64,000 bases of DNA. Source: Octopus vulgaris (taxonomy: Eukaryota). Positions 5,811-43,156 of the stretch are shown here, one piece after another (position 1 is the stretch's first letter; each line of letters begins with the position of its first letter). The DNA is taken from NCBI GenBank assembly GCA_951406725.2, contig OX597821.1, positions 69,626,001-69,690,000 on the forward strand, written 5' to 3'. A model generated the notes under the pieces. It was not told the origin of the DNA, made no database searches, and was given only the letters and a program-made list of their open reading frames with translations. Position numbers and translations under genes: made by a program.

Positions 5811-6244
<434 letters not shown>

Positions 6245-17198: not shown

Positions 17199-17782
17199 AT
17201 AATAATAATAATAATAATGTATACTATAATGGCGAAAGCTACTTACTAATTAGGTATGTAACAATTACTAAAAGTAGTAAAAGAAAGCAATTATTAAAAG
17301 CTTGAGTGTCTGGAGAGGAAGGAATTACAACCGTGTTTCGTAGTCTGCTACCACAACAGCTCCTTCATAGGATCTAGTTAGCTCAATACATCATCAGGAG
17401 GAACCACGTCCGGTTTCGGCCCCTACTCCTCTACCGTTTTGACGTGCCCCCCCCCCCTTTCGGAGGTGTCTTCAGCTCTGGTGTTCGGTGCATGTCTTCT
17501 TTCTTCTTTCTTCTGTTCCCTGGCCTCTTCGATGTATCGTCAGCGAGTGTCAGCCGGTAACTGACTGACTTGTCAAAATTTTCCCTTTAAATACCTCCCG
17601 CTAGGCTCCAGCAGGCAGCCCCAGTAAGTTGTCACGTGACACTGTCTCACCGTAACTGACTAGTGAAGGCGCGTAGTTTAAGCCCGCGCATTTTCTAAAC
17701 GACCGTCACCTGTCAGTCAGCGAAGCTGATTCAGTGTCAGCTTGTCTCAGTGATGTTATTTCCCGCCAGCATGTTATGACTT

Positions 17783-18415
17783 TCAAGCCATTTTCGGGCT
17801 TCCTGCTTCAGCCGTATATAGAAGTTGGCTTTTTCGACCGCCTCCCGTACTCTCCTTATTAGTTTTCGCAGCTCTTTTGAAAAGCGTTGTCATTTTCCTT
17901 TCAATGAAGCCTCTAGCCCCCACTGCCAGGTGATCATATTCGACATCCCATCCCTGTTCTCTGCATTCTTCGACTAGCTTTTCGTACCTCTTCTCCTTCC
18001 GTTCTTCTGCATTGCCGATGTTCTCTTCCCAAGGTACTGTCAGTTCTAGTAAAATTCCTATTCTCCGGTCTCTGTTCCATAGGACTAAATCCGGTCTTTT
18101 TGTTGTTTTTATTAGTGGAAATATTACTTGTCTTTCCAAGTCCGTGGCCACCTCCCAGTATCCATTCCATCTTTCGTCTGTCTCGTATACTTTTCTTGTA
18201 GGCCTGGTTTTATTTCTTTTTCTCTCTTTGTGGAAGTATACTTTCCTGCGCTTTTCTACTTTTGGGTACTCTCCCCTATTGTACCTCTCGATCTTCTCCT
18301 TGAGTGCTACGCTTATGACGCCGAGGACTTGATTATGCCGCCATGTATATCTTTCTAGTGCTAGTCTGCAACTTGACAGAACATGTTTAACCGTCGCTTT
18401 CTCTTCGCATTTTTA
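17783..18415 (-). mobile_element. HERO-like non-LTR retrotransposon C-terminus (CCHC remnant plus restriction-like endonuclease)
   Basis: CEEKATVKHVLSSC, RYTWRHNQVL, RPDLVLW...LLELTVPWEENIGNAEERKEKRY...GARGF. Confidence 0.85.
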
Positions 18416-33287: not shown

Positions 33288-34511
33288 CCCTCCCATATCC
33301 ACAACACTAACCTTGCTCTCCGTCTCTTCAACGCTTTCTCCTTCCCTTCTGGCCCCTCTAAATTTCTTTTCATTTTTGATATCAAGAGTTTATATACGGT
33401 GATCCCAACCCCAACCTGACGCCTCCACACTTCTCCGTCTGGTCTAACTTGTTCTCTCCCTCAACAGCTTCTCGTTTGTGGGGGATTTTTTGCCCACATG
33501 TCTCGGGGGTGGCCATGGGAATGAGAATGGGCCCTAACTATGCGAACCTATTCGTTGACTTCGTTGACCAATTCACTGGTCCTACTCCCGAACTATACGG
33601 TCGTTACGTCGATGTCTGTATCGGATGATATCCCTCTCCTGCGAACAACAAGACTCCTTCCTCTCTTTTGTCCAATCCTTCCATCCTGCATTCGAATTCT
33701 CCTGCTTTATTTCTAACTCTTCTTTCGAATTTCTCGACATTTCTGTCAGCATACATCACTTCGCTTTCCCTACCTCCATCCACTACAAACAAACACCCAT
33801 ATCTTAACTTCTCCTCCTCCCACTCTACCCACACAAAGCTCTCCATCCCCTACTTCCAATTCCTCCGTCTACGCAGGCTCTGCAGTGACAACCATGACTT
33901 TGAGATTCAGTCCAAACTCATGGCTCACCACCTCATCCTACGAGGATATCCTCTCACTACTATCCACGCCAGGACATGATCTATGGACCGTGGCTCTGCA
34001 TTTTCTCCTCGTACACACCCCGCCGTTTTCCGTCTCGCGTTTCCCTTCACCAACCACCGCTCCACCCTGCCCCTCCAACGCACCATTCTCCGAGCCTTTC
34101 GGCGACTCCAGTCCGATCTCCCTACCTCGCACATCTTCCTCATCTTACCCCTTCCCTCCTTAAAACGAGCCCATAACCTGCGTGATACACAGTTTCTTCC
34201 CTAAATCCACCTCCCAGCCTCTTGTTGAGATCACAAGCACTATATATCTCCGCTTCATTCAACCTCTTTTTTCTATTATTATCTCCCTTTCTTTCAATCT
34301 CTTTTCCCCCCAATTATTCGCCATGCTGGACCGCTGAAATCTTCAAGTTTTTCTCACCCCCTGTCTGTTTACTCTCTCTCATATTCCTTTCTGTTGAAGA
34401 GCGTAGGCTCGAAACATAAAATACTTTCTCACTTTCCCGAGCGTCAAACTAATACACTTGCCTTTTGTTCATACACCAGTCTTCGTCTTTTGTTTTTCTA
34501 TAAATTTCAAC

Positions 34512-37012: not shown

Positions 37013-38050
37013 TCGCAGGCGTTCCCGGCATCTCAACATTTCCCCAGCTGATCTCTCGGCCCTTCGATATCTCCGACGTCGCAAGGGTATCATCATCAAA
37101 CCAGCCAACTATGGTGGAGCTGTAGTGTTGTGGAACGTAGACCTTCACAGGTCAACTTCAAGACACTTCCTTCTACAGCCCTCTGCCTTCCAGCTCAACA
37201 CCGAACAAACAACGGACTCCACTATTCATGATCTCATTTCCTTTTCCTGTCTCCCCCACCGCCTCCAACTTCAGTGTCCGTACCCCACGCACCCCCAATA
37301 TTTACTTTCTTCCCAAAATTCACAAGCCCAACAACCCTAGCTGTCCCATCGTCTCCGCTTGCAACTGCCCCACTGAAATGATCTCCAAATACCTCAACTG
37401 TGTCCTTGCCTTCCTGGTGGCTTCTCTCCGCTCACACATTCATGAAACTCGTCATTCTCTCCGTCTGTTTAAATCTTTCTCCTTCCCTTCTGGCCCCTCA
37501 CAACTTCTGTTCACTTTCGACATTAAGTCTCTGTATACGGTGGTCCTACACAACGAAGGCCCTCTGGCACTTAAACACTTCCTTGACCTTCGGCATGCTC
37601 CTCAACCTGACACCTTTACACTTCTTCGTCTGCCGAACTTGCCCTCTCTCTCAACTGCTTCTCGTTCGCGGGCAAGTTTTACCAATATTTCTCGGGAGTG
37701 GCCATAGGAACGAGAATGGGCCCAAACTATGCGAACCTGTTCGTTGGCCATGTTGGGGCCGAAATATTCTCACTATTCACTGGTCCCACACCCGAGCTAT
37801 ACGCTAGTTATGTCGATGTCTGTATAGGCGTAACTTAGTTTCTCACGAACATCTGAACTCTTTCTTCTCTTTTGTCCAATCCTTCCATCCTGCCTTCGAA
37901 TTCTCCTACTATATTTCTAACTCTTCCGTCGAATTTCTCGACATTTCTGTCAGCATACACCATTCCACTCTCACCACCTTCATCCACTACAAATACATTG
38001 ACTCATACTCCTACCACCCTACCCGCACAAAGCTCTCCATCCCGTACTCT
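37013..38050 (+). mobile_element. Penelope-like RT fragment, same group as 33288-34512
   Basis: YFLPKIHKPNNPSCPIVSAC, FTFDIKSLYT, GVAIGTRMGPNYANLFVG, YVDVC; frameshifted. Confidence 0.92.
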
Positions 38051-38059
38051 TAATTATAT

Positions 38060-38728
38060 TATTTTAACTTCATCTCACAGGGGAAGGTGGTTTCCGTTTT
38101 TTCCATACATGATCAGCTATACCCGATTTTTCAACATCTCCTCGTATCACAGCTTTACGATGTTCCTCTAACCTTATTATGAATGGGCGGCATGTTTCAC
38201 CTTTGTATAAACTATCACAACTGCATGGGATGGAGTACATGCAGTCTTTGGTCATGTTCTCTTCTAATGGTGGTTTTACTCGAAGGAGATACTTGCGAAG
38301 TGTTGAATTACTCTTGAATACTGTCCTGATGTCATATGGACCGCATATCTTCTGTATCTTTTCCGAGAGGCCTTTCACATAGGGTAGACAGACTGTGGTC
38401 AATTTATGGGTTTCATCCACTCTCCTCTTCCTAATTGGAGTGGATAGTATGTTTTTTTGGGTCGTTGTTGCTTAATAGATTGTTACTTAGCTTGATCATT
38501 TCTTCATGGTATGTATCAGGATCACTAATTATATGCTTTGCTCGATGTTTTAGGTACTGAGCAATCCCTCTCTTTACACTGTATGGATGGTGGGAATTGA
38601 AGTTGAGGTCCACTGAAGTTTGGCTTGCGGTGTACAGATGTCCTGAACTCATGCGTTGTGCGTATTATAAATACACCCAGGATTGCTAGCTGATTGTCTT
38701 TTTCATTTTCCAATTTGAACCTTCGACA
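38060..38728 (-). mobile_element. Second Penelope-like family: thumb plus GIY-YIG endonuclease
   Basis: LNFNSHHPYSVKRG, LPYVKGLSEKI, CMYSIPCSCDSLYKGETCRPFIIRLEEH. Confidence 0.9.
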
Positions 38729-42419: not shown

Positions 42420-42483
<64 letters not shown>

Positions 42484-42488
<5 letters not shown>

Positions 42489-43156
42489 CAAGGAACGGCC
42501 ATAATAGGCCATTCACCCACTAGAAATAACAGCCAAAGATTCAACCGCAAAACAACATCAATTCCGCAAACCAGGAGAAAATTAAAAAAACATTTACCCT
42601 GTAGTTCCTTATACGATGCACCGTTTCATCTATTGTTTAATGGTAAACTAACCTGATTAAATTAAATCAAGCCAGTCTTCCATAGGCCGATAGATTCGTC
42701 AGTAAGAACAGCCAGATCGGAGCAGATATTTACACGAGGCACTTCTATCACTGTCTCGGCAATATCTGACCTAAAATTTTCAAATCATCGCACTCGCGCC
42801 AAATTTATCGGCAGCAAATATAAGCCGCCGATTCCATTACGGAATTAACCAGAAAATTCATAATTAATCAATATAGGGTGGCAAAAAATTTCGTAGAATT
42901 TTTTTTTTTTTGCCACCAGCGGCCTAGTGGGAAAAAGTTAAATAGTCATAGACCATTTGTAAATTCAACAGCAAAATCAAGGAACGGCCATAATAGGCCA
43001 TTCACCCACTAGAAATAACAGCCAAAGCTTCAACCGCAAAACAACATCAATTCCGCAAACCAGGAGAAAATTAAAAAAACATTTACCCTGTAGTTCCTTA
43101 TACGATGCACCGTTTCATCTATTGTTTAATGGTAAACTAACCTGATTAAATTAAAT
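42484..43156 (-). mobile_element. Retrozyme-like element: 489-bp unit present about 1.4 times, flanked by (TA)n
   Basis: 42484-42667 equals 42973-43156 (183/184 identical); no ORF in the track; contains a hammerhead motif. Confidence 0.8.
42604..42709 (-). ncRNA. Type I hammerhead ribozyme with extended stem II
   Basis: guucuua-CUGACGA-aucuau-[56 nt hairpin]-auagau-GAA-acggugcaucgu-A-uaaggaac. All core residues present and stems I, II and III can pair. Predicted cleavage after GUA, between 42612 and 42611. Confidence 0.9.

Follow-up and report, generated by a model that had tools for sequence, protein, structure and literature searches.

A hammerhead retrozyme-type element of Octopus vulgaris with Penelope-like insertion ends

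The element in the window

A non-coding element of 673 nt resides at 42484..43156 of the window, the whole stretch of 64,000 nt of Octopus vulgaris DNA analyzed here. Its RNA sense is the minus strand, and the insertion, denoted L001, consists of a single arm of 56 + 489 + 128 nt, or 1.38 units, started at a site called S1. The repeat reported in an earlier note on this DNA is confirmed: two direct copies of 184 nt (42484-42667 and 42973-43156), spaced by a period of 489, differ at one residue only (42539 A vs 43028 C), and no frame longer than 62 aa is found by a stop-to-stop search of 42484-43156. One 489-nt unit lies between two predicted cleavage sites (42612..43100, minus strand), and corresponds to the predicted linear monomer or circle; unit position 1 is residue 43100, the base after the cut. 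The near identity of the repeats had been taken as the mark of a recent insertion; that dating is reasonable, although a single mismatch over 184 nt (0.5%) does not set this copy apart, the units within insertions of the family differing by 0.8%. The duplication is neither an assembly artefact nor a single-copy feature, relatives being found genome-wide.

The 3' end of L001 (42484..42487, minus strand) corresponds to unit position 128, falls in the S1 cluster of the family (positions 117-141, with modes at 129, 131 and 132), and abuts the (TA)n target tract (42431..42483). The internal S1 start site is at 42969..42972 (minus strand), with a hairpin at 42982-43003 directly 5' to it. A second site, S2, whose cluster spans unit positions 230-245, maps in this copy at 42860, or unit position 241, and a hairpin at about 42877-42918 comes before it; the stretch of about 110 nt between S1 and S2 (42860..42968, minus strand) makes up a 'tail'. 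At the 5' junction the element gives way to (TA)n, and residues 43147..43206 contain three 20-nt periods, each formed by the last 10 nt of the element and 10 nt of TA, presumably generated by slippage at or after insertion. A similar short reiteration of the last 9-10 element bases plus TA marks the left end of insertion L016, where either slippage or telomerase-like repeat addition at S2 could account for it.

Other features were noticed in the window. Decayed pieces of Penelope-like RT and endonuclease, detected by tblastn with a family A query (see below), reside on the plus strand at 33488-33952 and 37309-38471, the latter stretch including an ORF at 38070-38471. On the minus strand, a 209-aa frame at 17783-18412 features CCHC and PD-(D/E)xK-like motifs, and presumably resembles the end of a restriction-endonuclease LINE; weak hammerhead-like strings, devoid of a convincing stem I, follow it at 17475 and 17397.

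Structure and conservation of the hammerhead

A complete type I hammerhead, supported by sequence and covariation, spans 42604..42709 of the minus strand, with a predicted cut at 42612/42611. It is made up by the 5' strand of stem I, GUUCUUA (42709-42703), the core CUGACGA (42702-42696), a stem II domain of 68 nt (42628..42695), GAAA (42627-42624), stem III ACGG/UCGU with loop UGCA, the GUA triplet (42614-42612), and the 3' strand of stem I, UAAGGAAC (42611-42604). All the hallmarks of the type are found (CUGANGA, GAAA, NUH, three stems, open stem I), and every core base is present, as the earlier note had claimed. The pairs AUCUAU...AUAGAU assigned there to stem II do close it, but the 56-nt insert that they enclose had been overlooked, the whole domain featuring 5-6 bp, an internal loop and an 18-bp hairpin. 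The second repeat carries, as described, the 3' half of the same ribozyme (43093..43156, minus strand: part of stem II, GAAA, stem III, GUA at 43103-43101, and the 3' strand of stem I), and the second predicted cleavage site (43101/43100) is exactly one unit from the first; its 5' half is missing because of the 5' truncation of L001.

The 12-mer including stem III (42613..42624, minus strand) is self-complementary, with a computed duplex energy of -17.5 kcal/mol, and in the model can pair two units as a double hammerhead. Folding exceeds chance both for the 126-nt region (z = -3.76) and for the 489-nt unit (z = -5.90). As a monomer, the hammerhead fold lies 4.2 kcal/mol above the minimum-energy fold in L001, and 1.5-4.2 kcal/mol above it in 20/20 aligned variants, the core being paired with stem III in the predicted minimum-energy fold. 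The covariance-model search with hammerhead models proposed in the earlier note gave no match: Rfam cmscan of the window copy returned no hammerhead up to E = 10, and the Rfam scans yielded microsatellite noise only. The 56-nt insert in stem II is the likely reason why the model misses the structure.

Covarying stems were found as anticipated. In an alignment of 20 hand-picked related variants 98.2% of 718 cells are paired, and two-sided changes occur in 4 of 36 pairs, three in stem I (two of them stemming from a shifted bulge) and one in stem II; none of 500 shuffles reached the observed pairing or covariation score. Since the rows are related, these figures are to be read as support, not as a probability. 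At N7 all four bases C, U, A and G occur in the ribozyme copies. Among the 100 matches listed, the triplet is GUA in 58 and GUC in 42 (the pattern barred G), and the loop of stem III is UGCA in 68, UAUA in 25 (6 insertions) and UACA in 7 (1 insertion); the commoner change keeps the palindrome, the rare UACA breaks it. These sequence comparisons suggest that the ribozyme of the 489-nt family is under selection. The ribozyme is likely to be active. The self-complementary stem III points to a dimeric ribozyme, an arrangement like that described for metazoan type I hammerheads (PMC4209133).

Size of the family

The genome searched spans 2.8 Gb in 227 contigs. A similarity search gave 1397 candidates, 40 of which were scored, yielding 117 matches with 88-100% identity. 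Exact ribozyme patterns detect 229 near-identical copies genome-wide, looser patterns 2668 and 2854 matches, with no hits in any reversed control. The many copies expected from the earlier note are thus present, about 2,700 ribozymes and at least 667 insertions, the latter figure being the number of exact S2|TA junctions. Members of other subfamilies, 85-94% identical, likewise end at S1 or S2 (11 loci). The element is also contained in sequence runs with four organism labels, none of which is on record as RNA. Contigs without end information, drawn from three presumed RNA runs (organisms A, A and B) and one run of uncertain kind (C), cover 29/29 bins and join 43100 to 42612, a join that tandem DNA gives identically.

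The family features a short non-coding tandem unit, one hammerhead per unit, neither LTR nor ORF, and dispersed copies ranging from monomers to multimers, as non-LTR retrozymes do; the RT + GIY-YIG ORF of an autonomous Penelope-like element (PLE) is missing within the element. The retrozyme-like nature first claimed for the locus, a non-coding tandem unit with a conserved type I hammerhead, is hence borne out: the element is real, abundant, of retrozyme type, and has been recently active.

Ends and arms of the insertions

The anatomy of the family was monitored in 89 independent insertions, obtained by merging 130 loci. They were selected by likeness to L001 or by an intact ribozyme pattern, and the set is therefore biased toward the young subfamily and long copies. 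Outward 3' ends number 148; 72 are at S1 (117-141), 69 at S2 (230-245) and 7 elsewhere, and 137 of the 141 S1 and S2 ends are joined to (TA)n. Head-to-head insertions with two outward 3' ends make up 59/89: 51 are S1+S2, none S1+S1, one S2+S2, and 7 have one end at neither site. S1+S2 is accordingly the state of 51/52 insertions having both ends at defined sites (binomial P = 2e-14). L084, the lone S2+S2 case, was rejected, being a 35-nt match to a local hairpin. A second S2|TA junction within 10 kb was found for none of the 100 matches listed. The remaining 30/89 insertions, L001 included, are single-armed, 16 starting at S1 and 14 at S2.

The 5' ends of 150 arms are uniformly distributed over the unit (chi-square P 0.60), only 1/150 being at position 1; the lack of a pile-up at the cut site fits rolling reverse transcription of a one-unit circle. 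Arms have a median length of 495 nt and reach 2878 nt, almost 6 units. The cleavage site is crossed by 129/141 arms; among these 141, 71 are longer than one unit, 24 than two units, and 6 than three. Either arm may be far longer than its partner (S2 arm of 76 nt and S1 arm of 2878 nt in L166; S1 arm of 173 nt and S2 arm of 465 nt in L081), so both must have been copied from RNA. Arm-arm junctions feature overlaps of 1-7 nt in 34/54 cases.

The notion that permuted, more-than-unit-length copies arise by copying round a circle is supported by the 71 arms exceeding one unit. The variable start points expected at the outset hold for 5' ends; 3' ends are fixed, 141/148 being at S1 or S2, and copies are consequently not random permutations. 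The (TA)n targeting, the two-arm S1+S2 insertions, the palindromic stem III and the Hydra-like long stem II had all been missed. Arms that differ in their site, one S1 and one S2, are the signature of the Penelope 'tail', here turned into a near-strict rule. Fixed internal 3' ends, a one-sided tail, variable 5' truncation, an inverted arm and a (TA)n or AT-rich target (the 137/141 ends above) are what cargo of an EN+ PLE should feature; sequence in common with an autonomous 3' end was not found among the PLE families sampled.

Penelope-like elements in the genome

Three young PLE families encoding RT and GIY-YIG, all with an upstream ORF, reside in the same genome: A (L091-L095), with many intact 781-aa frames, B (L096, L098 and L102), and C (L097 and L103). 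By visual inspection, elements of families A and B are joined to (TA)n at an end carrying short, minimal hammerhead-like motifs; in B, two ends are seen about 34 nt apart. Close to its (TA)n-joined end, family A has a variant core, UUGAUAA, and a palindromic stem III; L103 carries an additional long-stem hammerhead-like motif at 6162.

A long-stem-II hammerhead pattern has 756 matches in the genome (2 in the control), which sit at the 3' ends of ORF-bearing elements with Hydra-clade motifs (CxCX5C linker and CxxC). These elements encode RT and GIY-YIG, in open frames of up to 1091 aa. The CxCX5C linker and (TA)n targets are known features of the Hydra clade, and an octopus family, Hydra-1_Obim, has been listed (PMC8557442). 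Their tails are about 100-120 nt long and their target is (TA)n; of five inverted pairs inspected, four combine a short end with a long one (S1+S2). In 11 further Hydra 3' ends, the ribozyme is found in 9, a variant in 1, and none within 1,850 nt in 1; five stop at the first site and five at the second.

The Hydra loci L237-L241, L250 and L252-L263 belong to abundant families with 55-65-nt stem II hammerheads and 100-120-nt tails, one family featuring an asparagine-rich insert upstream of the endonuclease. In a single Hydra arm, the plus arm of L241 near 4860, the end is neither S1 nor S2 but a point no more than 2 nt from the ribozyme cut. Older AT-rich long-stem-II hammerheads, with a stem II of about 63-80 nt and palindromic stem III, occur at L242:6534, L243:6438, L244:6219, L245:1927 and L246:2154, some of these loci ending at (TA)n about 140 nt past the cut. 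Two candidates were rejected: the long-stem hammerhead of L106 is a nested Hydra-type insertion, not a part of family A, and L123, at first sight a fusion to a Hydra end, turned out to be nested within the TA sequence flanking an old copy of 76% identity.

The 489-nt unit was compared by blastn to these elements. No partner was found among 30 GIY-YIG loci, which contain one 51-nt truncated copy of the family only, nor among 16 long-stem loci, which contain one old copy of the family itself; no similarity was found to 16 full PLE loci and to 11 Hydra 3' ends, and an nhmmer profile of the 11 Hydra ends had no match on the unit. As 150/6136 and 105/45,750 PLE-protein candidates were scored, some PLE families have been missed. 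Mobilization of the 489-nt element by a PLE-type enzyme is very probable. Hydra-clade elements are the best guess for the partner, because they agree with the family in the shape of the ribozyme, the length of the tail, the target and the end rule, yet the guess stands at an even chance, other TA-targeted families (A-C) being present in the same genome.

Comparison with known systems

Animal retrozymes give rise to circles of 170-400 nt, and RtcB circularizes them in vitro (Cervera and de la Pena 2020, PMC7229834); PLEs are regarded in the same paper as candidate mobilizers. Retrozymes track PLEs, and those of Xenopus are often pLTR-like (Li et al. 2026, bioRxiv 10.64898/2026.07.22.740005); 1/9 Xenopus retrozymes cleaved in vitro, the other 8 did not. 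The 489-nt family shares with animal non-LTR retrozymes a non-coding, low-GC tandem unit, one type I hammerhead per unit, a range from monomers to multimers, and the co-occurrence with PLEs. Its unit exceeds the 170-400 nt of PMC7229834, and falls within the 51-972 bp given by Li et al. 2026. It differs in its 68-nt stem II (about 4 bp in the canonical form), in the two fixed 3' ends, head-to-head insertions and (TA)n targeting, and in that no pLTR homology was found for the unit. The word 'inverted' does not occur in the main text of PMC7229834, the accessible text of which has no match for octopus or cephalopod either; Li et al. 2026, in the portion available, cover vertebrates, insects and a coral.

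PLEs are known for partial tandems, inverted 5'-truncated arms, a 30-40-bp tail, often one-sided, and a bias for (TA)n (Craig 2021, PMC8557442). With EN+ PLEs the family shares partial tandems, an inverted 5'-truncated arm and a tail at one end, as well as two internal RT starts, the AT-rich or (TA)n target, and the hammerhead near the 3' end (PMC8557442, PMC3846280, PMC11167929). Unlike them, it has no ORF, the tail is about 110 nt long rather than 30-40, and arms pass repeatedly through one unit. Tails are 'often' or 'optionally' one-sided in the EN+ PLE papers, and in the 489-nt family the proportion is 51/52. Similarity is closest to the Hydra-clade elements of this genome, which feature the long-stem-II hammerhead, palindromic stem III, (TA)n target, and two ends 100-120 nt apart, one per arm. 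In contrast, S1 is about 130 nt past the cut here and about 35-40 nt in Hydra, and Hydra elements encode RT and GIY-YIG and have no detectable sequence similarity to the unit. The non-autonomous Chlamys elements (MRC1) are similarly of PLE type, with pLTRs and multicopy head-to-tail insertions; unlike the 489-nt family, they generally resemble an autonomous 3' end, and most lack hammerheads (PMC8557442).

No description of the 489-nt family was found in the openly accessible literature searched, though it may already have an entry elsewhere, as in Repbase or Dfam. Nor did that literature yield any retrozyme with ends of PLE type, or any count of the one-site-per-arm rule. Both the kind of element and the PLE tail are already known.

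RNA template and mechanism of insertion

Divergence between units amounts to 0.82% inside an arm, 0.79% across the two arms of one insertion, and 3.8% from one insertion to another. A rare variant is fixed in every unit in 12/63 insertions, and mixed subfamily haplotypes within one array were found in none of the multi-unit insertions printed. Units of the same index are no closer across arms (0.81% v 0.90%, P 0.48). Variants common to only a subset of the units of an insertion number 21, singletons 167. The star pattern is what is expected from repeated reading of one unit. Some of the subset-shared variants fit later local duplication or conversion; they may otherwise reflect a mixed template, and a single clean circle would not predict them. 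In L016, L020 and L150 junction-proximal pieces of both arms share variants missing from the outer units, possibly through conversion in the palindrome or fold-back repair. A circular RNA is, on balance, the probable template.

In vitro, a Poseidon protein cleaves the two strands of AT-rich DNA and extends each of them (Frangieh 2024, PMC11167929). Its RT has two internal start sites, the intervening stretch being the genomic tail, and a dimer is predicted (PMC11167929). We place the 489-nt family with the animal (non-LTR) retrozymes, as a non-autonomous retroelement mobilized in trans by a PLE RT-endonuclease, and the following stepwise account is, overall, rather likely. Tandem copies would be transcribed on the ribozyme strand, and hammerheads one unit apart, probably paired through stem III, would release a 489-nt monomer, circularized by a host ligase if other retrozymes are a guide. 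A PLE protein, probably a dimer, would cut both strands of a (TA)n tract, and each DNA end would prime reverse transcription, S1 being the start for one and S2 for the other; the enzymology of this step is borrowed from Poseidon in vitro, the end pattern is observed. Each RT would then travel round the template, across the cleavage junction, over a distance that varies and may reach almost 6 units, and the resulting cDNAs would be joined head to head with short overlaps. In single-arm insertions such as L001, the other arm would have been lost or never made. The 7/59 two-ended insertions with one end at neither site do not conform to this scheme.

Much the same picture would result from a young array of homogeneous units, copied as a linear multimer. 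The PLE enzyme would in that case start twice on an uncut read-through transcript, the ribozyme being dispensable for insertion: in vitro, ribozyme-dead RNA is inserted by Poseidon equally well, and uncut RNA is the main substrate (PMC11167929). An uncut multimer would account just as well for the uniform 5' ends and for read-through of the junction; the hammerhead fold competes with an inactive structure, and the subset-shared variants fall on the same side. A multimer, however, should transmit unit differences in register to both arms, and none are seen; arrays of mixed haplotype are missing among the multi-unit insertions printed, and covariation, free N7 and the GUA/GUC exchange indicate that a cleavage-competent structure is maintained. 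We regard the linear template as unlikely.

Less probable still, the unit could be the terminal repeat of an unsampled autonomous PLE, locally amplified after insertion, as in the model of Li et al. 2026. Xenopus retrozymes do match pLTRs (bioRxiv 2026.07.22.740005), PLE families were missed in the sampling described above, and some adjacent units in L016 share private variants, a sign of local duplication. Yet 71/71 arms longer than one unit continue into the same unit, not into an ORF, and 30 free 5' flanks have no junction sequence in common. Pieces of PLE ORFs, found in 5/89 regions, are neighbors or old hosts, with no common upstream part. Divergence is equal within and between arms, and arrays therefore date from insertion. 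An autonomous ancestor with a matching end may exist.

Self-priming or fold-back, possibly on an antisense template as proposed for rotifer Penelope (Arkhipova 2013, PMC3846280), would accommodate the 1-7 nt overlaps and the variants shared at the junctions of L016, L020 and L150, but is very improbable, as either arm may greatly exceed the other, innermost pieces are not significantly closer across arms overall (0.69% v 0.90%, P 0.12), and one S1 plus one S2 end are left unexplained.

Implications

Penelope has been proposed before as the mobilizer of retrozymes, on the basis of co-occurrence and pLTR likeness; insertion-level evidence for the mobilizing enzyme, or for a circular template, was not found in the literature searched, and the role of PLE hammerheads is described as unclear in the texts available. 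The chief interest of the 489-nt family is the insertion record rather than the ribozyme. Its footprint, two starts, one per arm, multi-unit read-through of the junction, and one haplotype per insertion, links a retrozyme to Penelope enzymology and favors a circular template.

A bolder and doubtful reading is that a viroid-sized RNA circle exploits a Hydra-clade enzyme by shape alone, the two having no sequence in common; an RT dimer would engage one circle at two fixed sites, each subunit being primed by one of the ends of a double-strand cut in (TA)n, and both would roll round it. If so, the PLE 'tail' would be the obligatory footprint of an asymmetric dimer, recorded in hundreds of insertions, the retrozyme circle would be the true template of transposition, and the long-stem-II hammerhead, missed by Rfam in the copy scanned here, would mark an uncounted class of such elements.

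Going back to PLE-type mobilization of a circular RNA, hammerheads of a type missed by a standard Rfam scan, run here on the L001 copy, number in the thousands. Three questions are addressed by the family: what mobilizes retrozymes, whether their circles serve as template, and by which route PLE tails and inverted arms originate. With long open frames of the candidate partners at hand in this genome, and an established assay for PLE activity in vitro, all three are directly testable.
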